Shown here: positions 7,999-52,031 of the stretch, piece after piece
Layout of the letters: every line of letters starts with the position of its first letter
Position numbering within the stretch: position 1 is the first letter of the stretch
Assembly (NCBI GenBank): GCA_963741205.1
Contig: CAVUHW010000026.1
Location: 96,001 to 160,000, forward strand
Length of the DNA stretch: 64,000 nt
Source of the DNA: Nitrospirota bacterium
GTDB taxonomy: Bacteria; Nitrospirota; UBA9217
Reading direction: 5' to 3'
Program-made: the position numbers and the translations under genes
Notes under the pieces: generated by a model
Seen by the model: only the letters and a program-made list of their open reading frames with translations
Told to the model about the DNA's origin: nothing
Databases searched by the model: none

Positions 7999-8024
7999 GA
8001 GGTTTTATATCGATGGGCTTTACT

Positions 8025-8096
8025 GCATAGCGCAGAGCGCATGGCGCATAGCGTTACTTCTTTTTTACCCTATGCTCTATGCGCCATGCCCTATGC
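8025..8096. repeat. Inverted pair of heptamer arrays (GCATAGC-type / CTATGC-type)
   Basis: GCATAGC GCAGAGC GCATGGC GCATAGC ... CCTATGC TCTATGC GCCATGC CCTATGC can form a long hairpin. Confidence 0.85.
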
Positions 8097-8101
8097 TTAT
8101 T

Positions 8102-8689
8102 TTAAAATCCTTCCAATACCCTGCTCCGGAGCGTGGAAGCAAGGCTTTTGCACGCGCTCTTAATGGCCACGTCTTTCGCTATCTTCGTCTGCGTAATATC
8201 CCCCAGGGACACGGCATAGACGGAATTGAAGATCGATCCGACACCTTGATCCTGCAAGAGCACCTTCTGTGTTTTGGCATCGATGATGGTCAGTCTCACG
8301 CCGATGGTTATATTGTACGACTGGACATAGGAATTCACCGAATACGATGTCGGGGTAATTTCGAACCTGGTCACACTGCCTTTGAGAATAATATCAGCCG
8401 CCTCAGGGCTGACGACCTGCAGCCTGCCGTCGGTGAGAAACTCGTCGACAACGGCCTGGGTAACCTCACTGTCGATAAAAGGCTCGAAGGTTCCATTGAT
8501 AAATACAGGGATGGCGATCGTTTTCGCAGTCGCGGGCACGATCCCGCCTACGGGGGTAAAATGATAGCCACAGGAGGTAAGCAGCAGGAGCAGGAGCAGC
8601 ACAACACCATGGGACGATGGTTGATCGCTGGATTTGCTCGCTTTGTTAAATGTTCCCGCGTTCCATATTTTGCTTCCCGTGTCCTTCAT
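8102..8689 (-). CDS. lptE: LPS assembly lipoprotein LptE
   Basis: Lipobox LLLTSC-GYH, TIAIPVFIN; lies between leuS and holA. True start uncertain. Confidence 0.85.
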   Translation of the reverse strand: MKDTGSKIWNAGTFNKASKSSDQPSSHGVVLLLLLLLTSCGYHFTPVGGIVPATAKTIAIPVFINGTFEPFIDSEVTQAVVDEFLTDGRLQVVSPEAADIILKGSVTRFEITPTSYSVNSYVQSYNITIGVRLTIIDAKTQKVLLQDQGVGSIFNSVYAVSLGDITQTKIAKDVAIKSACKSLASTLRSRVLEGF

Positions 8690-8716
8690 CCCCCGTCCCT
8701 CTTCCCCCGCCGCACC

Positions 8717-11917
<3,201 letters not shown>

Positions 11918-33933: not shown

Positions 33934-34085
33934 CGCCGGCGACTGATTCGTCCGGAAGCCGTCACGTTCCCCCGACCCCTCCTCCTTTCGCGGGTTGACG
34001 CCCGCTGCGTCCGGTGCTACCTTAAAAATAAAAAGAGTGTGATCCGCCCTTACGACCTAAGTCATAGGGGCGAGGAGGTAACATC

Positions 34086-34982
34086 ATGATAACCATTCTG
34101 GGAGCAACAGGCAACATCGGGAGTAAAATAGCCGGCATCCTTATCGAGAAGGGGGAACCGGTGCGGCTCGTCGCGCGCTCGGCTGACCGGTTGAGGTCCG
34201 TGGCGGGCAAAAAGGCGGAGGCCCTTGCCGGTGATGCGCTGGACACGGAGTTTCTGATCAAGGCGTTCACGGGCGCAGATGCTGTCTTCACCTTGATCCC
34301 GCCGAACATAAAGGCTGAAAAGTTCATGTCCTATGCCGACGCCATCGGCGGGAGCATCGCCCGCGCGCTGGAGGTCGCGAAGGTGAAGTATGTTGTGAAC
34401 CTTTCGAGCGTCGGCGCCGAACTGCCAGAGGGAACGGGACCGATCGCGGGCCTCCATAACCACGAGGAGCGTCTGAACAGGATCAAGGGGCTGCATGTCC
34501 TGCACCTGCGGCCGGCGACCTTTATGGAAAACCTGCTTATGAATATGGACCTGATCAGGACCAAGGGCATCACCGGCAATGCCACCCGGGGCGACATCAA
34601 GTTCCCGATGATCGCGACCAGGGACATCGCCTCTTACGCTGCCGAACGACTCCGGAAGAGGGACTTTACCGGCTCGTCGGTCCGGTATCTGCTCGGCCAG
34701 CGCGACTTGAGCCTCATCGAGGCGACGGAGATCATCGGCAGAAAAATCAACAAGCCCGGCCTGAGCTACACGATGTTCCCCTACGACGATGCCGAGAAGG
34801 GGCTTGTCGCCATGGGACTGTCGGCCGACATGAGCAGGCTGTACGTCGAGATGAGCAGGGCCTTCAACGAGGGGCGCATCAAATACGAAAAGCGCACTCC
34901 GGAGAACACGACGCCGACCTCGTTCGAGGAATTCTGCGACCACGTGTTCGTGCCCGCGTATATGCAGAAAAAGGCCGCGTAA
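34086..34982 (+). CDS. NmrA-family NAD(P)-binding protein
   Basis: ITILGATGNIG, NLSSVGA, LRPATFMEN, IATRDIA. Confidence 0.9.
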   Translation: MITILGATGNIGSKIAGILIEKGEPVRLVARSADRLRSVAGKKAEALAGDALDTEFLIKAFTGADAVFTLIPPNIKAEKFMSYADAIGGSIARALEVAKVKYVVNLSSVGAELPEGTGPIAGLHNHEERLNRIKGLHVLHLRPATFMENLLMNMDLIRTKGITGNATRGDIKFPMIATRDIASYAAERLRKRDFTGSSVRYLLGQRDLSLIEATEIIGRKINKPGLSYTMFPYDDAEKGLVAMGLSADMSRLYVEMSRAFNEGRIKYEKRTPENTTPTSFEEFCDHVFVPAYMQKKAA

Positions 34983-35026
34983 CGATCGTGTGGGCATAAG
35001 CGCCTATCGAGCGCTTCCCTTCTGAG

Positions 35027-35060
35027 AAAAAGGGGGAATGTGCAGCGCGGCACATTCCCC
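35027..35060 (-). terminator. Terminator-like hairpin between convergent genes
   Basis: GGGGAATGTGC-N6-GCACATTCCCC with a T-run on the minus strand. Confidence 0.7.
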
Positions 35061-35159
35061 GGGAAACTTGCATGGAGTTTTTAAAAAACCTTATGCTTCA
35101 CCGCGATTCAGGATGAGAGTCATCACGGGTGGTGATTTGGGATTTGAAGTTTCCTCTTT

Positions 35160-36189
35160 CTAAGCCAGCTCAGCCAGCCTTCTGATCAGCCGTTCGCTGT
35201 CCTTCCAGCCCAGGCACGGATCGGTGATGGATTTGCCGTACACGTTTTCGGACACCTTCTGCGCGCCTTCCTCGATGAAGCTCTCGATCATGAAGCCTTT
35301 CACCATCTTCCGCACGAGCTCGGAATTTTCGCGCGTCCGCATGACTTCTTTTGCGATCCGCGGCTGCTCCTTGTACTGCTTGTTCGAGTTGGCGTGGTTC
35401 GTGTCCACGATGATGGCGGGGTAGGCGAAGGCCCGTTCCTTGTACGCCTTGGCGACCCTGATCAGGTCTTCGAAATGATAGTTGGGGATGCTCTGTCCGA
35501 ACTGGTTCATCGCCCCCCGGAGCACGCAGTGGGTCAGCGGGTTTCCGGAAGTCTTGACCTCCCACCCGTTGTAACTGAACACGTGCGGTGCCTGGGACGC
35601 CTGAACCGCGTTGAACATCACATCAATGTCGCCGGAGATCGGATTTTTCATGCCCACGGGGACGTCGAGGCCGCTGCAGGTCAGGCGGTGCTGCTGGTTT
35701 TCCACCGAGCGCGCGCCGACCGCCACGTAGGACAGAACATCTTCCAGATACGCATAGTTGTTGGGATAGAGCATTTCATCGGCTGCCGGGAAGATGGGAT
35801 TCCTTGAGCGCCCGGATGTGCATCTTCCGGATGGCCTTGATCCCCTCGACGATGTTCGGCTCTTCCTTCGGGTTCGGCTGGTGCGCCATGCCCTTGTAAC
35901 CGATGCCGGTCGTGCGGGGCTTGTTGGTATAGATGCGGGGGATGATGACGATCTTGTCCTTCACCTCATCCTGAACCTTCGCGAGCCGTGAGATATAATC
36001 GCACACAGCGTCCTCGTCGTGGGCCGAGCAGGGCCCGATGATAAGAAGGAGTTTGTCCAGGTCGCCGGTGAATACGCCCTGGATTTCCCTGTCCTTCTCT
36101 TTTTTGATCCTTTTCATATCCGCCGAAAGCGGCATCTTTTCGATGATATCTTTGGCTTTCGGGATCTGCCGGATATTTGAGAAGCTCAT
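35160..36189 (-). CDS. Class I DAHP synthase (frameshift near 35788)
   Basis: IIGPCSAH, YTNKPRTT, AVGARS, VGMKN, DTNHANS, GKSITDPCLGW. Confidence 0.94.
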
Positions 36190-36380
36190 AGGCTTTGTAA
36201 TACCTCCCCTTCTTTCAATTACCGCTTGCGACACTCGCCGGATGCATTTTTTTGATTATAAGAACCCCCATAAGGTAAGTCAAGATAAAAACTGTCTCTA
36301 CCGGGCCGTGAGTGAGTCCCGCGTCCGCAGATCAAAAAACGCTGGCCTTTTCTCTCGTAATATTGTATATAAAGCGTGCC

Positions 36381-37339
36381 ATGGCAAAGAAACCACCAGC
36401 AAAAAGGAAGGGTAAAGGCGGCGGCTCCGACCGCTGGATAATCACGGGGATCGTCGTCGCTCTCGTGGTGATCTCGCTCGTTCTGTGGGGCCCCCTGCGC
36501 AAGTTCCGGCCTCACGGTGAAAAGAGGCACCCGCCGCAGATGACGCAGCAGGAAACAGCCCCCTCGCCAAGGCGCCTCCGCAAAAAACTAAAAAACCTGC
36601 TGAACAGGCAACGAACGGGAAGCTCGAGAAGCATGAGGCGGGACCGGCGCTGCTCGGCAACGCGACGCCCGAAAAAACAGTCATGGTCGCCATCGTCATC
36701 GACGATCTGGGCGTGGACCTGAAGCAGGCCCGGGATATCCTTTCTTTGCCGGCCAAAGTCACCTTTGCCGTCATGCCCGGCCTGGCCCAGTCCAGGAAAG
36801 TCGCGGAAATGGCGCGGCAGAACAACCGCGAAGTGCTGCTTCACCTGCCCATGGAGTACCGGAGCAAGAACGGGACTCCGGCGCCGGGCATGCTGCGCTC
36901 CGACATGACGCCCATGGAATTCCTGAGCACCGTGAGTGACGATGTCGAATCGGTCCCCGGCGCCGTGGGCATCAACAACCACGAAGGCTCCGCGCTCACC
37001 GAGAACAAGGAGGCCATGAAGTTCCTGATGGCCGAGCTCAAGGCGCGCAACCTCATGTTCCTCGACAGCCTCACCAGCGCGAATAGCGTGGCCTACGCAA
37101 CGGCCCGGGAGTTCGGTCTCAAGGCCGCCAAGCGCGACGTATTCCTGGACAATGACAGCAACAATCCATCCTCCATACGGAAACAGCTCGATGAGTTGGT
37201 GGAGATCGCGCGGAAGAACGGCAGAGCGATCGGCATTGGCCATCCGCACCCCGCGACCGTTATCGAACTCAGGAAATGGCTCGCGGATACGAGCGGACAC
37301 GGCGTCGAGATCGTGCCGGTGTCGAAACTGATGAACTAA
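36381..37339 (+). CDS. Divergent polysaccharide deacetylase (YibQ-like; frameshift near 36570)
   Basis: N-terminal TM segment; AIVIDDLG, LLHLPME, NNHEGS, FLDSLT, RDVFLDN, AIGIGHP. Confidence 0.9.
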
Positions 37340-37344
37340 CAGGG

Positions 37345-37448
37345 TCAAGATAGCAAGGGGCAAGGGACAAGGTAAAAAACTTTCCATGGTTTACCCGCCT
37401 CTTCCGCCTTGACCCTTGCTGCTTGCTACTTGCTGCTCCTGCCCTTGA
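37345..37448. repeat. Inverted pair of heptamer arrays (GCAAG / CTTGC type)
   Basis: TAGCAAG GGGCAAG GGACAAG ... CCTTGAC CCTTGCT GCTTGCT ACTTGCT. Confidence 0.75.
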
Positions 37449-37454
37449 AATCCC

Positions 37455-38459
37455 ATGCTCACCCTCGGAATAGAAACCTCCTGCGATGAAACCGCGGCCG
37501 CCGTGCTGGACAACGAAACGGTCCTGTCCAGCATCGTCTCCTCGCAGACCGACATCCACAAAAAATACGGCGGCGTGGTGCCCGAGCTCGCGTCGCGGGA
37601 ACACTTGAAGAACCTCGTGCCCATCATTCGCGAAGCCCTCGACGCGGCGGCGGTCACTCTCAACGATATCGGCCTCGTGGCCGTCACGTATGCGCCAGGC
37701 CTGATCGGCGCCCTGCTCGTGGGGGTGTCGGCGGCAAAGGCCATCGCGTACGCGCGGGGCATCCCCTTCATCGGCGTCCACCACGGCGAAGGCCACATCC
37801 TCGCCGCTCACATCGAATACCCCGGCATCGGCTACCCGTATATCGCGCTGCTCGTGTCCGGCGGCCATACGGCTCTCTACCATGTCAAAGGGCTTGGAGA
37901 CTACCGCATGCTCGGCCAGACCAGGGACGATGCCGCCGGCGAGGCCTACGACAAAGTCGCCAAGCTCATGGGCCTTGAATATCCGGGCGGCCCGGTGCTT
38001 GACCGGCTCGCGCAAAGGGGAAACCCGGAGGCAATAAAATTCCCGCGCGGCCATCTTGCCGGGTACGATTTCAGTTTCAGCGGCCTCAAAACCGCGGTCA
38101 GGAACCATATCGCGCTCTTCATGAGCAGGGACAAGGGCATTGAGCCGAAACTGGACCTCGGGGACGTTGCCGCGAGTTTTCAGGCGGCCGTTGTGGACAC
38201 GCTCGTCGGAAAGACCATGCAGGCCGCGGCTGAAACGGGCGTGGACAAAATCGTCGTCGCAGGAGGCGTAGCGGCGAACAGTTCACTCAGGGCAAGAATG
38301 GATGACGAGGCGGGGAAACGGGGTATCACACTCTATCTTCCGGGCATGTTCTACTGCATCGACAACGCCGCCATGATCGCACTTGCGGGATACCTCCACT
38401 TCAAGCGCGGAGAGACCTCAGATCTTGACCTGAACCCCCGGGCCGGCATGCCGCTGTGA
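37455..38459 (+). CDS. tsaD: tRNA threonylcarbamoyltransferase TsaD
   Basis: LGIETSCDET, GGVVPELASR, HHGEGH, SGGHT, DNAAMIA. Confidence 0.97.
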   Translation: MLTLGIETSCDETAAAVLDNETVLSSIVSSQTDIHKKYGGVVPELASREHLKNLVPIIREALDAAAVTLNDIGLVAVTYAPGLIGALLVGVSAAKAIAYARGIPFIGVHHGEGHILAAHIEYPGIGYPYIALLVSGGHTALYHVKGLGDYRMLGQTRDDAAGEAYDKVAKLMGLEYPGGPVLDRLAQRGNPEAIKFPRGHLAGYDFSFSGLKTAVRNHIALFMSRDKGIEPKLDLGDVAASFQAAVVDTLVGKTMQAAAETGVDKIVVAGGVAANSSLRARMDDEAGKRGITLYLPGMFYCIDNAAMIALAGYLHFKRGETSDLDLNPRAGMPL

Positions 38460-38564
38460 TTTTTTCTCGTACGTGCTGTTTGCAAAGCACCTGTTGAGTC
38501 GAGCACTGCGCTTTTCCTTTACCATTCGAAGGTGTACGATTATTCGAATCCGACCCCTGTCGCA

Positions 38565-39090
38565 CTATGGCCAATAACTAACAAAGCCGTCTCGGTTCGG
38601 CATTTTAACCTGAGGGAGCGTTTTTGCGTCCATCCGCACCTCCGGGTCTATAATGCCGTTGAGGAAAAGAAGGTACGCGCTCACCGCGTAAACTTCGTCG
38701 TTCGAAAGGGACTGAGGAGCATTGAAAGGCATGGCCCTGCGAATATAGTCGAACAGCGTGGTCGCGTAGGGCCAATAGCTCCCGACGGTTTTTACCGGTT
38801 TCTTCGAGGCCAGCGTGCCTATCCCTCCCACGAGGGGATCGGCGGGTCCTTCTATACCCTTCACCCCATGACAACCGGCGCACTTCGCGTTATAAACAGC
38901 TTCTCCTTCGGCAGCCGTACCACTACCGGGAGGAAGTCCGCTTCCATCGGGCGGAATACTGATATCCCAGGCGGCAATTTCTTCGGGCATGACTTCTTGG
39001 CCGAGATTGGGACTGGAGAAGGCAGTTCTGGTAACGAAAATAACGGCAGCCAGTCAGAACGAGGACTCTCAAGAGTTTATTGGTAGACAT
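38565..39090 (-). CDS. soxD: SoxD-like monoheme cytochrome c (frameshifted N-terminus)
   Basis: AWDISIPPDGSGLPPGSG, CAGCH, KTVGSYWPYATTLFDYIRRAMP, MPNRDGF; ATG 39090 overlaps the soxC end. Confidence 0.82.
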
Positions 39091-40408
39091 TTCGGATCAC
39101 TCCTTCCGGGCTTATACTCCAGGTCTGAATCGCATTGTAGTGATATTCGTTAGCTACCGAATACTGAGCACGTCCATTTTTCACGGGTGGGCTGGATGTT
39201 CCCTTTCTCATCCGCGGCCCGGCTTTGGAGCAATACGGGGCCCCCATCCCAATTCCAGGGAACACGAAACCGGGTCAGCGCCAGCGGGAGAACTGGAGCT
39301 TGCAGCGCCGCTTTGGCCCAGCTCTTGCCGCCGTCTGCGGAGACCTCCACCTGGGTGATGCGGCCGGAGCCGGACCAGGCGAGACCCGATACTTCGTAAA
39401 AACCCTTCCCCTTCATGGTCATGCCCGCGGAAGGATGAGTAATGACCGACTTGACCCCCATGGGAAAGGTGAACTGACGGGCTCTTCCATCCGGCATCAA
39501 ATCGGTATACTTCGAGGTTTCTTCCCGGCTATAAATAGGTTTTTCCGTGACCGTCAGCCGGCGGAGCCATTTGACGGACATATTCCCCTCCCAGCCCGGC
39601 AGCAGGAGCCGCAGGGGGTAGCCTTGTTCAGGACGGATACGCTCGCCGTTCTGGTAAAGGGCGATCATGGCATCATCCAGGGCTTTCTCGATGGGAATAC
39701 TCCGGTTCATAGCGGCAGCGTCTCCGGCTTCGGCCACGATCCATTTGCCCTTGGGGTCCAATCCGGCTTCGTCCAGCAATAAAGCCAGAGGGATACCCGT
39801 CCATTCGCAGCACGAAATCAGCCCATGGATAGCCCCACAGGACATTTGAGGTGGTTCCGGTCTGGTATTGAAAAGGCTGTTGCCTGAACATTCCAAAAAG
39901 AAGATCCGGCTTACGGTGGGATACCGTAACAACGCCTCGACGGAGAATTTCAGCGGCCTTTTGACTAGGCCATGGATGAGCAGCTCATGCTTGGTGGGAT
40001 CGATGTCCGGAACGCCGCTGTGATGTCGCTCGTAGTGCAACCCGTTCGGCGTGATCGTACCCTGGAGCTGATGCAGCGGAGTCATGGACATCGCGGCACC
40101 TGGAGCAATATCCTTGTATCGCTGGTAGAAGATCCGCTTGACCTCCGTCTTCATATTTGGCAGGGTTGACCATAACCCCGGAACGGCTGTCCGGGTATCT
40201 TCATCCACGGAGGGGTTTCCAGCGCCGGAGACTCCGCTGCTTGCGCCGTCGCCAAAAGATCACCCGAAAGATTGCCTGCCGCCACCAATCCGGCCACCTT
40301 GACCGCGCCTGTCAGAAAGGCCCGACGGTCGAGCAGACCCCGGTCTGCTGCGGGTGCAGGCAGTTCCGTTGTTACTTTTCTTTTTGATATTTTCCACCTG
40401 GATGTCAT
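39077..40408 (-). CDS. soxC: SoxC-like sulfite/sulfane dehydrogenase molybdopterin subunit, Tat-exported (frameshifts)
   Basis: Tat motif DRRAFL; ITPNGLHYERHH, FLECSGN, EQGYPLRL, VKWLRR, YHYNAIQTW. Confidence 0.88.
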
Positions 40409-40506
40409 CGCCCGCCTCCTATCTCTTTAACCATTACGACCGAAATGGAAGGACAAAGGTTGCTAAACCTGCACATCGTTTCGATGAAAACTTTTGAAAA
40501 ATCTGC

Positions 40507-41898
40507 TCACTGGGCAGTAACCGGTTCATATCCAAAATCCAGCGCATTCCCCAGATCATTCGCGGCGGCATCGCGAGTCCCGAGCGGCGCAATATTCCAA
40601 CGTTTTTCGATAAACTTCAAAATAGAGGTTGTATCGTACAGGGTGTGGTCAACATACCCTTTCTTCGCAAACGGAGAGATAATGATTGTCGGAATCCTGG
40701 TTCCCGGCCCCCACCGGTCGCCTTTCGGCGGCGCGACGTGGTCCCATCGGCCGCCGTTTTCATCATAGGTGATGATAATCACGCTGTCCTTCCAGTACGG
40801 GCTCTCCCTGAGCGTCTTGACCAGTTCCGCGACGTGCTGTTGCCCGGCAAGAAGCGATGCATAGCCAGGATGTTCATTGAACGCACCGATGGGCTTTATA
40901 AATGATACCGAGGGCAGGGTACCATTTTTAAGGTCTTTTAAAAACTCCTGTTCGTCTTTTAGATGAGCGCCTCTTGCCGGAGTCCCGTCAGAATAGTTCG
41001 CGAAATAAGCAAAGGGCTGATGATGGTACTGAAAATACTTGTCAGCTTTCCCGGCAAGCGCATCACTCCAGCCTCCTGAATACCACGCCCAGGAAATGTT
41101 TTTTTCCGTCAGCCGGTCTCCAATGGTCGGCATGGTTTGATTCGGCAGGAGTTTACACCGGTCCCCCGCTTTATCCGGGTGCGGCTGGTTCACGGAATAA
41201 ACCGTATTGACAGCGTACCCGTCAGGCGTGATCGCGCCGTCCTGCAGGAGTGTTCCGTTCGAATCGAGCTTTGCAACCAGGGACAGAGGCGCATCAGGCC
41301 AGGCCGGCGTACAGGCGCAGATGAGCCAGAAATGATTCAGGAAGGACCCGCCGAAGGCAGCCTGAAAAAAGTTGTCCGCGATCGTGTATTGGCGCGCAAG
41401 CTTCCCCTCGGGAAGATCGCTCGCGTCGAAATAGCTCATGACCAGTCCGGGGTTGTCGCTCCAGGCGGCGAATTTATCCATTTTGCCGCCGTCGATCTGC
41501 AGCTGGTTCTGATAAAATCGGTGAACAAGGTCCCCTGTTTTCTGATCAATGGAAAGATACTGCAAAAGATCATACGGTTTCGCCGGTATATTTTCAGGAA
41601 AACGCCCGTCATGAACCGCCGGCTTTGAGCTCGTGTCCAGCGGCCCCGGTAATGCCGCCAAAGGTTCCCCTTCCTTGTCCACCTGGTTTACTGCGTTTCC
41701 CGCATTTGCGAGCCCGTTTGCGCCGGGGAACTTTCCGTACAAGCCGTCAAAACTCCAGTTCTCCTGGTAAATAACGACAACGTGTCCGATTTTTTCGAAT
41801 GCCTTCGATGGAACTTCCGCCGGAGCCGGAAAGGGATACAAAAACAGGAAGGCGAAGAACAGTGTTAGCACGCTTCGGATGCGGTGTGAATGGAACAC
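40507..41898 (-). CDS. Secreted acid phosphatase / phosphoesterase (AcpA/PLC family)
   Basis: Signal peptide; VVIYQENWSFD, DLVHRFYQNQ, GGSFLNH, NEHPGY, TYDENGGRWDHV, GPGTRIP. Confidence 0.92.
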   Translation of the reverse strand: MFHSHRIRSVLTLFFAFLFLYPFPAPAEVPSKAFEKIGHVVVIYQENWSFDGLYGKFPGANGLANAGNAVNQVDKEGEPLAALPGPLDTSSKPAVHDGRFPENIPAKPYDLLQYLSIDQKTGDLVHRFYQNQLQIDGGKMDKFAAWSDNPGLVMSYFDASDLPEGKLARQYTIADNFFQAAFGGSFLNHFWLICACTPAWPDAPLSLVAKLDSNGTLLQDGAITPDGYAVNTVYSVNQPHPDKAGDRCKLLPNQTMPTIGDRLTEKNISWAWYSGGWSDALAGKADKYFQYHHQPFAYFANYSDGTPARGAHLKDEQEFLKDLKNGTLPSVSFIKPIGAFNEHPGYASLLAGQQHVAELVKTLRESPYWKDSVIIITYDENGGRWDHVAPPKGDRWGPGTRIPTIIISPFAKKGYVDHTLYDTTSILKFIEKRWNIAPLGTRDAAANDLGNALDFGYEPVTAQ

Positions 41899-42224
41899 TC
41901 TCTCCTCCCATTCTTAACCGAGAAGCAAGGCAATAGCAGCGCGGGATTCCCAGAATACTCATGTTCTGGGAACTGAACAGCACTAAGTGGAACGATTTTA
42001 GTATGGCCTGATCTTTTTGTAAAGAAAATAACAGGAATATTGCTTTTGAGATTTCATTCTCCGATAGGGGTGATTGCCGGGGTATTCACGCCGAGGTAAC
42101 GGGCGATAGCCGCCGTGGTTAGCGAATTCTACTCCGCCCGCGCACAGCAATGCGCGCCCCTATGTCGCTCACTTTCCTGCGCTGCGAGGTGGGACAGTGG
42201 AGTTGCGGCAGGTCAAAGGATTGG

Positions 42225-43922
42225 TCAAAACTTATAGGTAATCAATGCTGTTCCGTCGAATCTGCGATACACATCGGCGATTTTGTAATACGACCCTTCG
42301 GCCGTAAGATAGAGCGATGGGCCGACCTTCACGCTATAGGCCAGATCGAGGTCCAGACCGGCATTCCATTCGTCTCCGTCGGAATGCCTCCGCGTGTATT
42401 GGAAACTGGGTCCGACAATCAAGCGCAGTTCACTGTCCGGTTGAAGCCGATAGGTGGCCTCCAGATGGAGCGCGTTGTTTACGAAAAGGTCCGGGCTGAA
42501 ATAACCTCCCGCAAAGGGCGCGTTATTACTGTCAACAAACCCCGAGTTGTCCTGACTGTAATGGGCTATCTGAAATTTATAGAAGAGAGCAAAAGCAAAT
42601 GCTCCCTCATTGAAGAAATGGAATCTGGCATCGGCGTCAGCGCCGACCAATGAGTTATTGTTTGTTGTATTCGAGCTGACATAGCCTGCATACGGCATCG
42701 CCGAGGCCTGGATCCGCTCACCTTGAAACGCAAGCCTGCAAAATGCGGTATTCGACCTGGCAGCGCCGATCTTCCGCCCCGTCACGCTGTCCGTATCTCC
42801 GGCAATGGCAAGCAGGGAGTCGTATTTGAACGCGCGCCTGATTCCCGGGGTGATCAGCACCCTGCCCTGTTCAGTCGAATATTGGACGAGAAATTCGCTG
42901 TCGCTCTCCGCGTCCTTAAAATCGTGGTACTTCAGCTCCGCGTCTATCCGGCGTGTGGGATCGAAACGGCCCTGCAGCCTCAGTTTATAAAAGGTGCCAT
43001 CGACAGTGGTTTCGTCGTGGCGGTATTTTTCCAGGCCGATTTCTGCCTCGCCGGTCAAAAATGGCGTTATATCCGCCTGGCCGCCTGCGTTCAGCAAATA
43101 GCCGGAGTAAGCGTAATGGCTGTCATCGCTCGACTGCTTGAAATAGGTGAAGCCCGTCTTTATCCGGGGTTCGCGGCCCTGCATGAGATCATCCCGGATA
43201 TGTTTTGCGGACTTGTCCTGTGAATCGTAGCGGAGCGCAAGCTTGGAGTGATAAATGGCGCGATCGTTATCTCCCCGCCAGGCATAGGCAGCGGCCAGTT
43301 CACGATGAGCGGCGCTGTTTCCCGGATTCCGGTCTACCAGGATTTGATACTGCTCGATTGCCTGGTCGATTGTTTCATGGTGCGCGGCAAGAAGCCGGGC
43401 ATATTCCAAACGGACACTGGCATCACCGGGTTTGGCACGCACGAGCAGCTTATATTCAGCGACGGCCTCATCAAAGGTACCCCTCTCCCCGGCCAGCAGC
43501 CTTGCCAGCCGGTGCCGGTTTTCGTAATCTGACTTGTGTTTCAGTCCCATGCGGTAATATTGGATGGCATCTTTTCTCCGGTAGGAAAACCTCGCGTCTT
43601 CAAGGTATCTTGCCTGCTTGAAGGCAATGTCGGCATCGTTGGGGAAGCGCTGCAAATAGCGGTCATAATGCTCAATCGCTTTATCGGTGAGGCCCTGCAA
43701 TTCATAAGCACGCCCGAGGAGCCGCATCGCCTCTTGATTGTCGGGATTAAGCGCAACCAGTTTTTCAAATGACTCAATGGCCGCCTTGTAGTTCTCGATT
43801 TCCATGTTGGCCTTGCCCCGTGACATATACCAGTTTTCTTTGATGTCGGCGTGCACTGCCGTCGCCAGGCAAAGCGACGCGATCATCGCGGCAATTGCCG
43901 CATAAAAAATAGATTTCATCAT
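42225..43922 (-). CDS. bcsC: Short BcsC-like TPR plus outer-membrane beta-barrel export protein
   Basis: Signal peptide (VHA/D), several TPRs, then BcsC-like motifs RRAFKYDSLLAIAG, DSVTG and GGYFSP, ending in a C-terminal Phe (ITYKF). Confidence 0.78.
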   Translation of the reverse strand: MMKSIFYAAIAAMIASLCLATAVHADIKENWYMSRGKANMEIENYKAAIESFEKLVALNPDNQEAMRLLGRAYELQGLTDKAIEHYDRYLQRFPNDADIAFKQARYLEDARFSYRRKDAIQYYRMGLKHKSDYENRHRLARLLAGERGTFDEAVAEYKLLVRAKPGDASVRLEYARLLAAHHETIDQAIEQYQILVDRNPGNSAAHRELAAAYAWRGDNDRAIYHSKLALRYDSQDKSAKHIRDDLMQGREPRIKTGFTYFKQSSDDSHYAYSGYLLNAGGQADITPFLTGEAEIGLEKYRHDETTVDGTFYKLRLQGRFDPTRRIDAELKYHDFKDAESDSEFLVQYSTEQGRVLITPGIRRAFKYDSLLAIAGDTDSVTGRKIGAARSNTAFCRLAFQGERIQASAMPYAGYVSSNTTNNNSLVGADADARFHFFNEGAFAFALFYKFQIAHYSQDNSGFVDSNNAPFAGGYFSPDLFVNNALHLEATYRLQPDSELRLIVGPSFQYTRRHSDGDEWNAGLDLDLAYSVKVGPSLYLTAEGSYYKIADVYRRFDGTALITYKF

Positions 43923-43930
43923 AGGGGTTC

Positions 43931-46900
43931 TCAGAAGGTAAAACCTGCCGCGTAAAAATTGGGTAAAATATTTTTCCGGTAAACCATGCGCATCGGTCTT
44001 TGTTCCGGCTCGCCTCCAAGGATTTGCCATTCACCGTCCGGATCGATGTGCTTCGCGAAAAAGAAGAGTTTTCTGCCCTTTGTGGACTGGTTGCGCAACA
44101 GGGCCCGAATGCTGGATGCCGTTATGAGAGAGCCTCGTCAGCCGGAACCGGGAGCGCCGGACCTCCGTGCGGTTGAGCGTGACGGAGGGGAGAAAAGAGT
44201 TGACAATCCCTTTCAGGAAATAGTATCCCATCATCAGGTTGCTGCCGGTCTGGCCCGCGTGCGCGTTTTTCCACGTATTCGCATCGGCAAAGGTGCGCAA
44301 CAAGAGCTCCCTTTTAGGCCCGGGATCCAGATCGGTGAAACTCACGCCGCACCGGACCGGGCCTCCGTGCCTTCGGTCCTGATACACTCGCCGGGCCGTA
44401 ATGGCAATTGGTTTCTCGTCGAATAATTCCAGGGTCGCCGATGATGGAATGCGGACATCCCGTTCAGGCACAAAGGATGCGCCCGTCAGGCTGATATCGT
44501 GCAGTCTGCCCTCCAATAGGAAGCCGTCCGCTGTCAATCGAAACGGCGCGGCGATGTTTATTCTTTCGCTTTGACGTCTTTGGGGCCTTTCCCAGGCCAT
44601 AAGAAGCGCCACCAGTAAAAAGACGAAATTGTACACCGCCCACCCAAGGTTAATAAAATAGGCCTCCTTTTCGACTCCGAAATAGGTAAATTCTATTATT
44701 CCCTTTATGATCGCAAAAAGGGTAATCGCCGCGGCGATCAGCGTTACCCAGGAGGATGACAAATCAAATTTTCTGGTATCGGAGGTGATGCCTTTGGGAG
44801 TCACCTTGAAGGCCAGCTTCCGGGGTAAAACCAGCTCGAATAAGGACAGAAACAGCGGGAAAGCGACGGCGTTTTCATAGACCACCCCCCAGAACATGCG
44901 CGGCCATCTCTGAAGCAGCGCCGAGGAAAGCAGCGGCAGGCATATCATATACGGAATGAGACGGGCCAAAAGAATTGAAACATCGGAAAAGATCGGGTGC
45001 AGGTGAAAGAGCAGATAGTAGAGCGGCGTAATCCAGAAAACAATTCTGACGATGGGGAAGAAAAAGTAGAATAAGGATGCAAAATAGCCGATCCGGTGAC
45101 GTAATCCCAACCCTTTTTGAAACATCGGGTTATTCTTGAAAAAAATCTGGAGGCAGCCTTGCATCCAGCGCTTTCGCTGCACAATGTAGGACGCGTAATC
45201 CTCCGCAGCGAGTCCCACGGCCAGGTCCTTGTCCACAAAAACAGAGGTATAGCCCTCTGCGTGCAGATGCTGGCTGCTGTGGATGTCTTCGGTGATGCTC
45301 ATCAGTTTGAAACCGCCTATTTTTTCCAGCGCTTTTCTTCGAAACACGGCCCCGCTGCCGACAAAGAAGGCCCCTTCCCAGTTGTTCCTTCCCCCCTGGA
45401 TGCCGTGGTTAAACATGTCTTGTTCATTGGGAACACGCCGTCCGACTCGAAAGGCCCTCTGAAAAATATCGTTGTTATAAAAATGGTGCGGTGTTTGTAC
45501 GACGCCGACCTTCGGGTCATGGAAGAACATTACGGTTTCGTCCAGAAAAGAAGAGACCGGGATATGATCGGTATCGAAGACAACGATCAGGTCTCCGCCC
45601 GTAATTGCCAATGCATTGTTCAGGTTGCCTGCCTTGGCATGCCGGCGCGGCCCCTTGATATAGGTGGCGCCATGTTCAATCGCCAGGTCGCGCACAGCAT
45701 CACGATGACTGTCGTCGAGGATGAAAACGGTTTTATGGGGGTACCTCATCGCGCAGGCCGCGGCCAGGGTCTTTTCCAAAATATCGAGAGATTCAGAGTA
45801 GATGGGGATATAAATATCCACGGACGGCGTATAATTATCGATCGGTGTTGTTTTTTTCTTCTTCTTTTTTAAATTAAGGCCGACCTGGACCAAAAGGAGA
45901 ACAACTGTTGTCAAGCAATAGAACTCCGCAATCCACAGCGAGATACTGATGAAAGGTCCCAGCGTTTCCCGAAAGTTCAGCGTAAAATTGAGACGCCACC
46001 ACAGGTACAGGAAGCAGATCGTAAACCCGCAGGCAAGCAATGCCACTTTAACGACTTTATGGAGGGCTTCCTGTTTCACCTTCAGGAGAAAATAGAGCAG
46101 AATGAAAATCAGTGTCAGCGCCCAGGGAAAGTGCCGCCAAAACCCCTTGGGATCCACCGGCTCGATAAAATCAAAAAAAGCCAGATAATTGCGCGCGACC
46201 CCGGCTTCGAAGGCACGGCCGAACCAGAGCCAGTTGTGCAGGTAATAGGGCGTTTCTTTGTCGGCCAGGGCATTTTTCCAGAGCCCGGTCAACTTCCTGG
46301 TATAGATCTCTTTGGCCAGTCCAGGGTCTTCAATGACGGCCAGCGCCTGAACCGTTGCATACAGCGGAAGGGCTTCAAGCTCGGATCGAGCCTGGCCCTG
46401 CGGGGTATATCGATCAACTATTTTCCCTTGCTGTTTCCATCGGGTTTGGAAAAAAGCCAGCATGGCCCTTCTGAGCTTGCCCTTGCTTCTTCCATGCCAC
46501 TGCGCATCCATGGCGATGCGCCAATAGAGGGGAAAGGCATCATAGCTGAAAAGGGCCTGCCGGTCGTCGTTGGATTTATCGATAAAGAGCCGGCCTGAAT
46601 CCTTGTTCACATAAATTACCTGGGGCGGCAAGGCCACGCCCTGATCGAAATACAGCCATTCTAATATTTCGTACGAGGAATCGATCAGCGCCCCCCAAGG
46701 ATGGCGATGGTCCACCTGCGCAAAGAGCCCGTAGGCATAGGGCGCCAGATAGCCGACGTGGATGGCGGGAAATTTTTCCTGGGGCGCCCAGTCGCCCGCG
46801 GTCGGAAAATACTTTTCGTTGATTTTGATGATTTCCTTGCGCCAGATATCGTCCAGGATGCGCAGGGCGTCGTCTCGATAGCCGGCAATGGAAAATTTCT

Positions 46901-47300
46901 CACTCGCCAGTAAAAGCGCCAGTGCAATGTCCGTGTCCGCATCGGTCGCCGAATTGTTGTCCTGTTTCCATTTCCACGCAAACAGGTGGTCGCCCCTTGT
47001 CATCAGGTGCGTTTTCGTCCATTGATAAACCTGCTGAAACGTCTGACGGTCATTGGTCCATACCGCGCGAAGCATTGCATAGCTCTCACCTTCGGAGGTG
47101 GTGATGCCGTTTTCATCCCAACTGATCACGCGGCCGTCTTTCACGTACGTGTACTTATAGAAATTCCACAATTCATGCAGGCTGTTGAGCTGTTGCAGAG
47201 ATTGGTCGTTTGCATATGCGGTCTTTGCGGAAAAGAGGCAAAGAAAGACTATTCCTAAAAGGAAGACCCTGCGACAGGATTGAAGAACAACGTTAACCAT
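43931..47300 (-). CDS. bcsA: GH8 endoglucanase-cellulose synthase (BcsA-type GT2)-PilZ-PilZ fusion; frameshift near 44104
   Basis: Signal peptide; GH8 motifs TTSEGESY, SATDAD, FSYDA; GT2 motifs DDS, HAKAGNLN, DTDH, QTPH, FFVGS, TED, QRKRW, FKVTPK; PilZ RRQSER/DISLTG; second PilZ RTEVR/NQSTKG after removing one C. Confidence 0.9.
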
Positions 47301-48108
47301 AATGCTGGAGATGCCTTTCCACGATTCTTCTGCGCAAGGCGCATGCCGGGAGAACCCTCGTATTCATATGACCGCCATCGCCCTTCGTGCGGATATTTCT
47401 CGGAATGGAGCAGCCGATTGTCGGTCTTAAGTCGTTTGGAGGGTGTAGCCGGTATCACAGAGGTGAGGAAAGCCATCATGGAATGGCTCTCCTTCTATCC
47501 AATAAAAAACGAGACGTCCGGCGCCGCGGATTTATACCGCTGCGCCGAAGGTCTCGCTCATTGGTTGACGCCAACTGCAGGGCCAGGCTTTGCAGCCAGT
47601 ATGTTGACCCTGTAACGATGGAGCTACTCCCCTTCGGAACTGCTCTTTTTTACCTTAGCTCACGGAAAAAGTCAAGAACTATGATTCGCCGGTGGTCATC
47701 TCCTTGATTTGTCCTTGCCGGAATGTCATCAGCATATCGATGTGACGGCCGGAGTTTATGAGATATTTCATTTTCCCCAAAATACTTCTTGCTATTTACG
47801 ATAAATCCTGTATTATTATGCTCGACTGTTTAACAATGCGGCTGGGATTTGACTGAAGTACCCACACACGTCACCATCTCCCCGCCCTTCATATCATCGA
47901 TCATCAACCCCCCCTTGCTTTCAGCTCCCACTCTGAAATCATAACAGCATATATGGTTGGCGAACGATGTAGTTATGCCGGTCATATCTGTGCTGGCGTC
48001 GTCTTCGCTCTCGGGAATACACATGTGTTCCTGCGGCCCGCACGCAAACCTTTAACGGGATTTCCCTGTCCGCATGAATATTGCTGCCGGGAGAACCAAA
48101 GGAGAATA

Positions 48109-49500
48109 ATGCCTTTTTCAAAACTGCAGCTCATCGAACCGATCCTCAAGGCCATAAAACTGTGCGGCTATACCGCGCCTACGCCCATCCAGGAGCAGGC
48201 CATTCCCAAGGCCCTGGCAGGTCAGGACCTGATCGCAACGGCCCAGACCGGTACCGGGAAAACCGCGGCCTTCGTGATGCCCGCGCTCCAGCGTCTCAGC
48301 GTACCGTCAACCTCCACCAAAAGATCCAAAGGTCCCCGCGTGCTCGTGCTCACGCCCACGCGCGAACTGGCGAACCAGGTGACCGAGGCGGTCAAAACCT
48401 ACGGCAAGTTCATGCGCATCCGAAGCGGTGTTATCCTCGGCGGCATGCCTTATTTCGAACAGCAGCGGCTTCTCTCGCAGCCGGTGGATCTCATCGTCGC
48501 GACTCCCGGGCGGTTGATCGACCACATGGAACGGGGCCGCATCGACTTTTCGCGTCTGGAGCTTCTCATCCTCGACGAAGCGGACCGCATGCTCGACATG
48601 GGCTTCAGCGACGCGGTTGACACCATCGCCGCTGCGACCCCTGCGGACCGCCAGACCCTCATGTTCACGGCGACCATGGACAACGCCATGGCGAAGCTCG
48701 CCCAGCGCCTCCTGAAGGACCCGGTGCGAGTCGAGATCGCGGGAAAAAAGACCACGCTCGAAGCGATCGAGCAGCGGCTCCACGCGGCCGACGACATGCA
48801 GCACAAGAACAGGCTCTTGAACCACCTGATCGCCGACAACGGCATGACCCGGGCGCTCATCTTCTCGGGCACCAAGCGGAACGCCGATCAACTTGCCCGC
48901 GAGCTTACTGCCCAAGGCCACTCCGCGGCCGCCCTGCACGGCGACATGAACCAGAACGCCCGGAACCGCACGATCATGAACATGCGCCGCGGAAAAATCC
49001 GTCTCCTCGTTGCAACGGACGTGGCAGCGCGCGGGCTCGACGTGACCGGCATCACCCATGTGATCAATTACGACCTGCCGAAGAATGCGGAAGACTATGT
49101 CCACCGCATCGGACGCACGGGAAGAGCGGGTGCGTCAGGCATCGCCATCTCCTTCGCGTCGTCAAAAGAAGTAGATTTTCTGCACCAGATCGAACGCTAC
49201 ATAGGACAGACGATCCCCCAGCAGGTGATCCCGGGGCTGGAGCCGTCGCGTCCGTTGCGCCGCTCAAGCGGCGGGAGCAGTCAGGGACCTTCATCAGGCA
49301 AACGCTGGCAGGGGGCTTCGGCAGGCAGGCGCTACGGGCAGAACACCGCGTCAAGAAATCCCTTTGGTTCCAGGACCGACAAAAAGTGGAATGGGGAATC
49401 CCGTTTCAATAATGATGACAAGAAATTCGTCAAGCGCGACGGAGGCAAGTTCGCGGACTTCAAACCGTCCAGACCGGCCCGTCAAAGCCGCTGGGCGTAA
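48109..49500 (+). CDS. DEAD-box RNA helicase (RhlE-like)
   Basis: PTPIQ, AQTGTGKT, PTRELA, DEAD, HRIGRTGR; SD AAGGAG before ATG 48109. Confidence 0.96.
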   Translation: MPFSKLQLIEPILKAIKLCGYTAPTPIQEQAIPKALAGQDLIATAQTGTGKTAAFVMPALQRLSVPSTSTKRSKGPRVLVLTPTRELANQVTEAVKTYGKFMRIRSGVILGGMPYFEQQRLLSQPVDLIVATPGRLIDHMERGRIDFSRLELLILDEADRMLDMGFSDAVDTIAAATPADRQTLMFTATMDNAMAKLAQRLLKDPVRVEIAGKKTTLEAIEQRLHAADDMQHKNRLLNHLIADNGMTRALIFSGTKRNADQLARELTAQGHSAAALHGDMNQNARNRTIMNMRRGKIRLLVATDVAARGLDVTGITHVINYDLPKNAEDYVHRIGRTGRAGASGIAISFASSKEVDFLHQIERYIGQTIPQQVIPGLEPSRPLRRSSGGSSQGPSSGKRWQGASAGRRYGQNTASRNPFGSRTDKKWNGESRFNNDDKKFVKRDGGKFADFKPSRPARQSRWA

Positions 49501-49526
49501 GGAAGACAGATAAAAAACAGTAAAGA

Positions 49527-49620
49527 ACGGTTACGGTTGCGTTTTTCGGTCGTTCGTCATAAGGACGTAACCGTAAGACTCGGAACGGAAGGGCATCGTT
49601 GCCGTAACCGTCGTAACGCG
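49527..49620. repeat. Hexamer (GTTACG/CGTAAC) inverted-repeat element
   Basis: ACGGTTACGGTTGCG ... CGTAACCGTAA ... CGTAACCGTCGTAACG. Confidence 0.65.
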
Positions 49621-49637
49621 CAGTTCCACCCGTCATT

Positions 49638-49665
49638 GCACCCCCTCATCGGGGGTGCTTTTTTT
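49638..49665 (+). terminator. Intrinsic terminator after the helicase
   Basis: GCACCCCC-TCATC-GGGGGTGC-T7. Confidence 0.9.
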
Positions 49666-49802
49666 ATGGTTCAATGAGCTGTTACGCACGAAACGATCAA
49701 AGCAGGACCTCAAAACCGGAATGAAGGCGCATCGCCGATGCGTACGATGCCAAGACCGCGGAGCGCCCGCACCAGCAACGGTTGACCACGTCCCCCGCTG
49801 CA

Positions 49803-50378
49803 TCAGAGGCAACCCTTTTCTACTCCCCAGTAATCGTAAAAGCAAAATTCGCTGAGCGGCTTCCTCGCCGGTCCTTCCTTTTTCTCCTCCACCGGGTACC
49901 CCAGGGGAAAGAGCCCCACGATCCTGATCCCCTCGGGGATATTCAGGAGTTCCTTCACCTTCTCCTCGTCGTAGACCCCCACGAACACCGAGCCCAGGCC
50001 CTGACCCCGCGCCGCCAGCATCAAGTTTTGCGCGGCCAGTCCCGCGTCGACGAGGTAATAGCTCTGTCCCCGCATCGACCCCGACCGCTCCGGGTCCGCG
50101 CACAAGACGATGACGACGGGCGCCTCGGCAAGGGCCTTCATCGAAGGGTTCGACTTGTACGCCTTGGGCGCAAAGTAGGACTCCACATAGGACGAGGCGC
50201 TGATTGCTGCCTTCGCTACCTTGTCCTTTACAACAATAAGGCGCCAGCACTGATAGTTGGCCCACGACGGCGCCATGCGCACCGCTTCAAGAACGGCATT
50301 GAGCTTCTCGTCCTCGACCGGCTTGTCAATATACTTGCGGACGCTCCTCCTGGTCCTGATCGCTTCGAAAAGATCCAT
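49803..50378 (-). CDS. Nitroreductase family protein
   Basis: [39 protein letters not shown]. Confidence 0.93.
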
Positions 50379-50456
50379 GATGTTCCCCCTTTCCCTTGCT
50401 TTCAGGCTGTGAAAAGATCCTTCATCGCACCTGGGTGCGGCACGGTGAAAGATATT

Positions 50457-51230
50457 TCATTCTTGGCATCCGTCCGCGGTTAAAGACCGTTCGGTCTTTA
50501 CGGTCCTTCGATGTTTTTCAATTTCCTCAAGGACCCTCTCCATTCCCGTTCCCTCGGTTGCCGAAATGAGAATGACCGGCGGGGTCGGCCCGCGAAACAA
50601 CAGGGGGATCGTGTTTTCCAACGTACGCGCGGTCGCGGCAGCATTTTTTAAATCGCCTTTGTTCACGAGGAAGATATCGCCGATCTCCATGATCCCGGCC
50701 TTCATCATCTGGATGTCATCGCCGAGACCGGGCGCGACGACCACCACGACGGTATGGACCGCATGCTTCACGGCGATTTCGCTCTGGCCCGCGCCCGTTG
50801 TTTCGATAAAGATCACGTCCATGCCGAGGGCGTCCAGGATCAGTGCGGCGTCCGCGGCCGTTCGCGAGAGCCCTCCCGTCCCTTTCCGCGTCGCCATGCT
50901 CCGGATGAAGACCCCGTTGTCCCCGAAGTGCTCGTACATCCTGATCCGGTCGCCCAACAGCGCGCCGCCGGTTATCGGGCTCGTCGGATCGATCGCGATC
51001 ACCCCGACCTTCCAGTTTTTTTTCCGCAAAAGCCCGGTGAGTCCGTTGATGATCGTGCTCTTGCCGCTCCCCGACGCGCCGGTAACGCCGACGATGTGCG
51101 CCTTGCCGGTGAAGGGCCTGAGCTCTTGCAGGATGGTTCGCGCCTCATCTCCTTCGTTTTCGACGATCGAGATCAGCCGCGCGGCAACCTGTTTATCGCC
51201 CGTGAACAGTTCGCGGATAAGTTTTTTCAT
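50457..51230 (-). CDS. meaB: MeaB-family GTPase chaperone of acyl-CoA mutases
   Basis: GVTGASGSGKST, IDPTSP.TGGALLGDRIRM, FIRSM, IETTGAGQSE, NKGD. Confidence 0.94.
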   Translation of the reverse strand: MKKLIRELFTGDKQVAARLISIVENEGDEARTILQELRPFTGKAHIVGVTGASGSGKSTIINGLTGLLRKKNWKVGVIAIDPTSPITGGALLGDRIRMYEHFGDNGVFIRSMATRKGTGGLSRTAADAALILDALGMDVIFIETTGAGQSEIAVKHAVHTVVVVVAPGLGDDIQMMKAGIMEIGDIFLVNKGDLKNAAATARTLENTIPLLFRGPTPPVILISATEGTGMERVLEEIEKHRRTVKTERSLTADGCQE

Positions 51231-51437
51231 GGTTCAATTATACTATAACGAGGCGGTGCTTCATCGTATTTCAATTCCGTGAACAGTTAAAGTCCAAAGA
51301 ACTTCGCATGCACTCTGAACGGTCACCTGCCACGACATGGTGGAAATTATCAGTTAATATTTATCCTTCCCCCCCTTGACACGCGTTCTTCTCTCAATAT
51401 CATTAGAATATATCCCTGATCACAAGGAGGAAAAATT

Positions 51438-51929
51438 ATGAGTAAGAAACTTGCCACATCATTCTTGGCTTTCGTATTCTCGTTTTCGCTTGTCTGCCCT
51501 GCCTTTGCCGAGGAAAAGTCCGCTGCCCAGGCGGCGAAACCGACAGAAGGTTGGACGCTCCACATTGATGCAAAAAGGCATTTCCCGAACCTGCCGGACA
51601 TGATTGCCCATCATTACTGCAAGCCGGTATCAGGAGGACTCACGGAATGCCAGCTTTACGACAGCGACAAGCCCGACGCCAGACTGGTCGGAATAGAAGT
51701 GATCGTGAGTAAAGAGACCTGGGGAAAATTCTCCGAGAAAGAGAAAGCGCTCTGGCATTATCACAAGATCGAGATCCCGAAAGTAGAGGCCGTACTCCCC
51801 GATGTCTCCCCTGAAGAGTCGGCAAAGATACTAAAAAGCATCGAAGAGACATACGGCAAAGTTTATATCCTGTGGGACCCTGCAAAGAAGGAGCCGGTAG
51901 GAAAGCCGCAGGTGTCGATACTGCATTAA
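51438..51929 (+). CDS. Exported DUF1264/OBAP-like protein
   Basis: Signal peptide; AHHYC, ECQLYDS, ARLVGIE, EKALWHYH, TYGK; upstream TTGACA-16-TATCAT and SD AAGGAGG. Confidence 0.82.
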   Translation: MSKKLATSFLAFVFSFSLVCPAFAEEKSAAQAAKPTEGWTLHIDAKRHFPNLPDMIAHHYCKPVSGGLTECQLYDSDKPDARLVGIEVIVSKETWGKFSEKEKALWHYHKIEIPKVEAVLPDVSPEESAKILKSIEETYGKVYILWDPAKKEPVGKPQVSILH

Positions 51930-51956
51930 GTTTTCCCAGATTTAAAAATCATATTT

Positions 51957-52031
51957 TGTCATTCCTGCGAAAGCAGGAATCCATGTTGTATTTGAAGAGC
52001 CAATGGATTCCGGGTCAAGCCCGGAATGACA
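51957..52031. repeat. REP-like palindromic element
   Basis: TGTCATTCCTGCGAAAGCAGGAATCCA ... TGGATTCCGGGTCAAGCCCGGAATGACA. Confidence 0.9.

Follow-up and report, generated by a model that had tools for sequence, protein, structure and literature searches.

A GH8 cellulase-BcsA synthase fusion and a short BcsC-like porin: a candidate two-gene cellulose secretion system in Nitrospirota

Can a bacterium with two membranes make and export cellulose with only two genes? The question is raised by a gene pair in a 64,000-nucleotide (nt) stretch of DNA, here called the window, from a Nitrospirota assembly (GCA_963741205.1, contig CAVUHW010000026.1, positions 96,001 to 160,000). The first gene joins a glycoside hydrolase family 8 (GH8) domain to a BcsA-type cellulose synthase, and the second encodes a short BcsC-like outer-membrane exporter. 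The locus matters because BcsB is held to be necessary for BcsA activity and the role of the cellulase BcsZ is debated; a lineage that dispenses with BcsB and has its cellulase in one polypeptide with the synthase offers a natural test of both. We consider it likely that the pair is a self-contained module, gated by cyclic di-GMP (c-di-GMP), for the synthesis and export of a beta-glucan, most probably cellulose, without BcsB.

Anatomy of the fusion protein and its porin

The features of the two genes are as follows.

44031-47300, minus strand: GH8-BcsA fusion open reading frame (ORF) in its window form, 1089 residues, the final 33 out of frame
47211-47300, minus strand: signal peptide, residues 1-30, hydrophobic over residues 4-30 and helical over 2-23 in the model, with predicted cleavage between AYA and ND
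46203-47210, minus strand: periplasmic GH8 domain of the BcsZ/CMCax kind, residues about 31-366 (PF01270, 120.6 bits; E70, D120, D122 and D254 invariant in 55 fused proteins)
45882-46133, minus strand: three membrane helices, residues about 390-408, 416-437 and 453-471, from hydrophobicity and the model, between the periplasmic GH8 domain and the cytosolic glycosyltransferase (GT) domain
45003-45821, minus strand: GT2 catalytic domain (D529/D530, D576xD578, TED 670-672, QRKRW 708-712)
44304-44582, minus strand: PilZ domain 1 (PF07238, 46.9 bits; RxxxR with R909/R913, DxSxxG 935-940)
42225-43922, minus strand: short BcsC-like exporter of 565 residues with a signal peptide, 13 tetratricopeptide repeat (TPR) helices and a 16-stranded beta-barrel, from Pfam, AlphaFold2 and Foldseek

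A first-pass annotation, made from the letters alone, had read a signal peptide, GH8 domain, transmembrane helices, BcsA-type GT2 and PilZ in one ORF. Pfam, the structural model and Foldseek all agree with this, and every motif it quoted (TTSEGESY, SATDAD, FSYDA, HAKAG, QTPH, QRKRW and FKVTPK) is in the ORF. Pfam places GH8 at residues 20-334 (E 1e-34, with the bit score well above the PF01270 cut-off of 24), GT2 families at 494-766, Cellulose_synt at 664-864 and PilZ at 907-999. The GT2 fold carries the D, DxD, TED and QxxRW signature of BcsA, and the BcsA gating loop FxVTxK is present as FKVTPK (831-836). The top NCBIfam models are the cellulose synthase catalytic subunit TIGR03030 (residues 395-1024) and BcsZ. 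In a search of solved structures, residues 397-941 aligned to E. coli BcsA (E 3e-94) and the N-terminal part to the GH8 endoglucanases CelA, CMCax and BcsZ. The AlphaFold2 model, built on 55 relatives, has a predicted local distance difference test (pLDDT) score of 85.2 and a predicted template modelling (pTM) score of 0.75. Foldseek matched it to Rhodobacter BcsA (4p00_A, TMt 0.80), and its GH8 domain to CMCax (1wzz, 0.81) and BcsZ (3qxf, 0.80); across CMCax, Cel10 and BcsZ the TMt values span 0.80-0.84.

Both catalytic centres are conserved. In 55 aligned fused proteins, 50-88% identical, the four GH8 residues listed above do not vary, which speaks for hydrolysis having been retained; E70 and D254 correspond to BcsZ E55 and D243 by alignment offset rather than residue-by-residue comparison. 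In the GT domain D529, D530, D576, D578, E671, D672, Q708, R709, R711 and W712 are invariant in the same proteins, as are F831, V833, T834, P835 and K836 of the gating loop. In PilZ domain 1, R913 and G940 are invariant and R909, D935 and S937 nearly so.

The loop after the first helix (407-416) carries three lysines, and the stretch after the third (474-492) carries six. By the odd number of helices and this positive-inside pattern, GH8 is assigned to the periplasm and the GT domain to the cytosol. The predicted topology thus fits the first-pass proposal of a tethered glucanase, and the model supports a cellulase held covalently to the synthase in the periplasm by the signal peptide and three helices. 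Alignments to canonical BcsA start only at residue 397-400 or so of the fusion, so the cellulase stands in for the N-terminal segment of the canonical protein. In canonical BcsA four helices precede the GT domain. The lysine run KKKKKK that follows the third helix (45852-45869) differs in length by whole codons among related populations: contigs of the public sequencing runs X1, X2 and X4 have 3-nt in-frame deletions at 45856 or 45859, the sole indels within the gene besides one at 44113. These contigs come from related populations rather than the source strain, and the best run shares 0.14 of the sampled words.

The longest ORF for the porin (42225-44030) begins directly after the stop of the fusion gene, and translation probably begins at ATG 43922 with a signal peptide that runs from MMKSIF to VHA, before D. 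The AlphaFold2 model (pLDDT 93.3; its numbering is one ahead of the protein, as the input started one codon early) has 13 TPR helices, or about six repeats, followed by 16 beta-strands. Pfam found TPR families and BCSC_C (PF05420, 34.9 bits against a cut-off of 23.5). The closest folds in Foldseek were those of E. coli BcsC (9b8a, E 1e-20; 9b8h; 6tzk, TMt 0.62), followed by PelBC (9h80_M), the PgaA barrel (4y25, TMt 0.75) and 8pz4. The claim of a neighbouring TPR/beta-barrel protein with BcsC-like motifs therefore holds, and 'mini-BcsC' is a fair description. A complex prediction of GH8 (residues 32-392) with the TPR part of the porin (residues 25-252) scored 0.00, which gives no verdict either way.

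The gene pair in other genomes and the search for BcsB

Is the fusion peculiar to this assembly? A word-indexed protein search gave 407 matches among 8000 scored candidates. All of the best 120 of the 407 combine PF01270 with GT2 families, and 118 of these also have PilZ, the exceptions being P0013, a 787-residue fragment, and P0121. They are 52-88% identical to the window protein and nearly all 1036-1214 residues long, P0013 being the one shorter, and they are named in their sources as 'glycosyl hydrolase family 8' or 'cellulose synthase (UDP-forming)'. The possibility of a stop and restart between GH8 and GT2 was checked: the junction is no assembly artefact, as the best 120 relatives are all fused and contigs from other runs span 45958-46313 without gaps. 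The first-pass annotation knew of no characterised example. No published description of a GH8-BcsA fusion or of the two-gene system turned up in full-text literature searches, although an earlier mention, for example in supplements, is possible; the architecture itself is not rare, with hundreds of database proteins.

A contig search with one genome per species returned 37 loci. The taxa given in their titles are Nitrospira (the complete N. moscoviensis NSP M-1 chromosome among them), other Nitrospirota, Desulfobacterales/Desulfosudis/Thermodesulfobacteriota, Myxococcota, Bdellovibrionota/Oligoflexales and two metagenome-assembled genomes (MAGs) labelled 'Spirochaetaceae'. The match begins within the GH8 part in 35 of the 37, and the same number have a relative of the porin directly downstream by tblastn. 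The two that lack both are L005, a 2-kb contig unable to show the GH8 part, and L037, an unfused GT2 of 33% identity. Where the porin gene is complete, which holds for 30 loci, -11 to +100 nt separate it from the fusion gene. The porins fall into two length classes, about 520-545 residues in Nitrospira and Bdellovibrionota and about 670-730 in Thermodesulfobacteriota and Myxococcota, with the window protein (565) in between. The 24 flanking ORFs scanned at seven loci belong to unrelated families (Hsp70, protein kinase, YitT, NUDIX, enoyl-CoA hydratase, YdbH, radical SAM and others), none of which recurs. The conserved unit is exactly two genes. One locus, L036, from a 'delta proteobacterium' MAG, has two inverted copies of the fusion, at 7063-9648 (plus strand) and 15236-12382 (minus strand), with fragments of porin genes between them.

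The neighbours of the pair in the window encode a phosphoesterase, a molybdenum (Mo)-oxidoreductase and a DEAD-box helicase. As the first-pass annotation had said, bcsB, bcsQ and a separate bcsZ are not among them, and we asked whether a bcsB lies elsewhere. BcsB (PF03170) was not found in the window's own genome (4.27 Mb, 84.5% complete), in the five genomes that hold L001, L003, L004, L008 and L026, or in 25 further fusion-bearing genomes. This gives none in 31, the complete Nitrospira moscoviensis record included. The same search was positive in an E. coli control and in two of three related genomes with unfused BcsA-like genes (E 1e-115 and 1e-121), where the BcsB gene adjoins bcsA. The absence of BcsB is not proven genome by genome, yet the contrast with the unfused-BcsA kin is strong. 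G025, a genome from the host's family, has unfused bcsA-bcsB followed by a GH8 gene (C48:5941-10788), so both types of system occur within that family.

The own genome has one copy each of the fusion and porin genes. It also has 23 GGDEF matches, which indicates that c-di-GMP signalling is present in the host.

The copy in this genome

The end of the fusion gene is disturbed in the window.

44104-44120, minus strand: site of a 1-nt surplus (frameshift), from three-frame translation against relatives, DNA alignment with the related locus L001 and contigs of run X1
43931-44105, minus strand: rest of a second PilZ-like domain, open to reading in the +1 frame alone, matching the C-termini of P0003 and P0004 and ending at the stop TGA 43931-43933

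Aligned with L001, the window DNA has a surplus base somewhere in 44104-44120, next to a GGGCCC run, and the letter at 44113 is absent from two contigs of run X1 (depth 7.16/7.16; 90-95% identical to the window). Close relatives are 1122-1164 residues long, and their C-termini match the window only after a +1 shift past LSHNGI. Without the surplus base the window gene would encode about 1126 residues, like P0003. The last 33 residues of the window ORF are thus out of frame, while the family's conserved C-terminal 70 residues or so can be read in the +1 frame. The frame from 47300 ends at the stop 44031-44033 and the shifted frame at the TGA noted above. Of the single uninterrupted frame described in the first-pass annotation, the part from GH8 through PilZ domain 1 is open, but the frameshift near 44113 comes before the natural end. 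Similarly, the 8-nt gap to the next gene does not hold for the frame from 47300; it does in the shifted frame, from the TGA to the ATG at 43922. The surplus base is a fault of the assembly or else a genuine lesion.

The C-terminal 90 residues or so of the family align to its own PilZ domain 1 (hhalign probability 91%, E 1e-6, 91 columns), and their consensus retains RRxxxR and DxSxxG-like motifs. Pfam missed this domain in the four intact relatives scanned, even with the E limit relaxed to 1; only profile-profile comparison detects it. A divergent second PilZ-like domain follows the canonical PilZ at the C-termini of P0003-P0122, a tandem PilZ in a BcsA-type synthase. The window copy is complete through PilZ domain 1 and lacks most of the second domain. 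In L035, a Nitrospira MAG, the fusion match is in two pieces, at 8001-10154 and 10178-11203 (query 3-715 and 723-1063), which may be another frame break.

How did the pair come to be here? Two further features bear on its surroundings.

38468-47778, no strand: segment of about 9.3 kb that separates tsaD from the DEAD-box helicase gene in this genome alone, by DNA comparison with same-genus genomes
47481-47637, minus strand: leader resembling the yybP-ykoY (Mn2+) riboswitch (19 bits, under the gathering score of 45), followed by ATG 47478 and about 10 codons of a GDT1-type gene

In four of five same-genus genomes 13-107 nt separate the tsaD side (to 38467) from the helicase side (47779 onwards), so the segment between them here is an insertion. 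Its other cargo is an ORF without family match, the Mo-oxidoreductase and the phosphoesterase. The last two (39150-41898, minus strand), of the sulfite-oxidase type and PF04185 respectively, are unlinked to the pair in the seven related loci with scanned flanks. The fusion was found in none of the 14 other same-genus genomes; of the 26 more distant kin searched, G037 alone holds a fused copy (55% identity). In a quick maximum-likelihood tree (34 rows, midpoint root) the window protein groups with L001, and this pair next joins three Thermodesulfobacteriota rows, apart from the Nitrospira clade; both groupings have a Shimodaira-Hasegawa-like approximate likelihood ratio test (SH-aLRT) value of 100. 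This pattern fits a horizontal acquisition of the pair. The host methylmalonyl-CoA mutase is closest to proteins of Nitrospirota MAGs, with 79-92% identity. No tRNA was found in 34000-52000 and no integrase, and the borders of the insertion have no convincing flanking direct repeats.

The riboswitch-like leader has GGGGAGUAGC and GUCAACAUACU cores, a T-run, AAGGAG and ATG. In DNA alignment it has 79% column identity to the leader of a GDT1/UPF0016 gene in the same-genus genome G011, and it appears to be the remnant stub of a manganese-responsive leader that now lies upstream of the fusion gene. An element of about 97 nt between the phosphoesterase and porin genes (41948-42044) has several matches in the same-genus genomes G006 and G016 (78-85%), and so is a small dispersed repeat. 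A promoter and terminator scan of 41800-47950 did not rise above shuffles (8 promoter-like hits against 5.9 expected, 3 terminator-like against 7.2).

Proposed function and comparison with known systems

What might such a pair do? The GH8 endoglucanase would be exported through its signal peptide and stay covalently held in the periplasm. If the established mechanism of BcsA applies, the cytosolic GT domain would polymerise UDP-glucose and drive the chain through the synthase's own channel, with c-di-GMP on PilZ releasing or opening the gating loop FKVTPK. To judge by its position, the chain would emerge beside the tethered GH8 cleft and then be handed to the short TPR-porin, an outer-membrane exit of the BcsC/PelB/PgaA class with about six TPRs, with no BcsB involved. 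The tethered cellulase probably clears the channel exit or cuts chains that miss the porin, and tethering would hold its activity at the exit in a 1:1 ratio. The idea of the first-pass annotation that it trims or sizes the emerging glucan is still a conjecture. In E. coli, cellulose secretion requires cellulase activity, which an unrelated cellulase can supply, and the proposed role of the enzyme is to clear mislocalised or jammed chains (PMC11379886). The GH8 domain sits on the periplasmic face, the place of BcsB in canonical systems, and BcsB was not found; the domain may also provide the periplasmic scaffold that BcsB gives those systems.

Several observations weigh against a complete and autonomous cellulose system. 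The fusion misses the NCBIfam equivalog cut-offs for BcsA (TIGR03030, 527.6 against 699.1 bits; NF008558, 401.6 against 992), its GH8 domain misses that for BcsZ (91.1 against 299) and the porin that for BcsC (40.7 against 858), so functional orthology with the E. coli proteins is not established. About six TPRs and one GH8 domain may not reach across the periplasm. Of the 31 genomes in the BcsB search most are MAGs of uncertain completeness and the window's own is 84.5% complete, and PF03170 is blind to a non-homologous substitute. The frameshifted window copy may be non-functional, and the tree comes from a quick search only.

The missed BcsA and BcsZ cut-offs would also suit a different beta-linked polymer, such as a mixed-linkage glucan or something chitosan-like, with a GH8 that matches that substrate. 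BcsA-like enzymes that produce mixed-linkage glucan reportedly exist, and the structural matches of the GH8 domain include a beta-1,3-1,4-glucanase (5xd0) and xylose-releasing enzymes. We think this unlikely, as the closest solved synthases, from E. coli and Rhodobacter, are true cellulose synthases, the QxxRW, TED, HAKAGN and FxVTxK motifs are all retained, and the closest GH8 folds are the operon cellulases CMCax and BcsZ. It seems about equally improbable that the module is not autonomous, the pair being a conserved core for which a protein unrelated to BcsB and encoded elsewhere does BcsB's job, for example a HlyD-type adaptor like that of cyanobacteria or some other scaffold in the periplasm. 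BcsB has been termed co-catalytic, some cyanobacterial systems use HlyD/TolC-like partners instead (PMC8892547), and our search covered PF03170 homologs only. No third gene, however, is conserved beside the pair at the seven scanned loci, and the pair moves as a unit over at least four named phyla.

A larger doubt concerns this one copy. It may be decaying or altered, with a real frameshift, the second PilZ-like domain lost and a recent island that goes unused, and we take this seriously while holding it the less probable account. The extra base stands out against L001, against the two contigs of a closely similar population and against the reading frame of every relative inspected; none of the 14 other same-genus genomes has the pair, and an unrelated riboswitch stub lies upstream. 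Against decay, the gene is undamaged through PilZ domain 1 and there 88% identical to the intact relative P0003, and a single surplus base by a GGGCCC run could be an assembly error.

We prefer the c-di-GMP-gated two-gene module without BcsB. No smaller cassette would then be known for cellulose export under c-di-GMP control in a diderm, which is useful for engineering. More tentatively, and with rather less confidence than in the module itself, we suggest a distinct BcsB-independent class of Gram-negative cellulose secretion. It may have had a single origin and spread horizontally among Nitrospirota, Thermodesulfobacteriota, Myxococcota and Bdellovibrionota. In such a class GH8 would replace the first helix of BcsA, serve as both scaffold and clearing enzyme and feed a six-TPR porin, and two tandem PilZ-type domains would act as the gate. 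Two genes would then be enough for a diderm to export cellulose across its envelope in a regulated way. Nitrospira are the main nitrite oxidisers of wastewater biofilms; the fusion occurs in Nitrospira, and a matrix polymer in these biofilms would be of practical weight. The tether also bears on recent E. coli work, which points to mislocalised chains being cleared by a cellulase that is not stably bound (PMC11379886; bioRxiv 10.64898/2026.08.24.745826).

The canonical BcsA-BcsB-BcsZ-BcsC systems of E. coli, Rhodobacter sphaeroides and Komagataeibacter share with the pair a BcsA-type GT2 domain, channel and PilZ, a GH8 enzyme of the BcsZ/CMCax type and a BcsC-type porin with TPRs and 16 strands. 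The pair differs in the lack of a detectable BcsB in the 31 genomes, in having three helices rather than four before the GT domain and, in intact members, in the extra C-terminal PilZ-like domain. Its cellulase is covalently joined to the synthase whereas theirs is free, E. coli BcsZ being apparently no stable member of the complex (bioRxiv 10.64898/2026.08.24.745826), and its porin has about 6 TPRs where canonical BcsC has some 18-19 (a TPR#18 is named in PMC11379886). Operon types I-III all have bcsA with bcsB, plus BcsD (I), BcsE/BcsG (II) or BcsK (III) (Romling & Galperin 2015, as summarised in PMC8892547). Here only two genes are conserved and no BcsB was found; BcsD, E, G and K were not searched for genome-wide.

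Known bcs fusions are BcsAB (Komagataeibacter, Acidobacteriales, Zymomonas) and BcsZC (Zymomonas) (PMC7112194, PMC9693552). They too put neighbouring bcs components into one polypeptide, but they join A to B or Z to C, whereas here Z is on the N-terminus of A and B is missing; a Z-A fusion is not mentioned in the available text of those two papers. The BcsB-less cyanobacterial systems (synthase with HlyD-like and TolC-like proteins) likewise have a BcsA-type synthase without BcsB in a diderm (PMC8892547). Their export resembles a tripartite pump, in contrast to the BcsC-class porin and fused cellulase found here.

The PelB/PelC, PgaA and AlgK/AlgE exporters are alike in combining TPRs with an outer-membrane beta-barrel (9h80_M; 4y25, TMt 0.75; 8pz4), but the best E-values of the porin are to BcsC structures and its partner synthase is BcsA-like. 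Tunicate CesA, a cellulose synthase with a C-terminal GH6-like domain, also has synthase and glycoside hydrolase in one polypeptide. It is eukaryotic, with GH6 rather than GH8 at the opposite end of the fusion, and has no PilZ or porin. Each part of the pair is already known in kind; what is new is how the parts are arranged, together with the lack of BcsB, the shortness of the porin and the additional PilZ-like domain.

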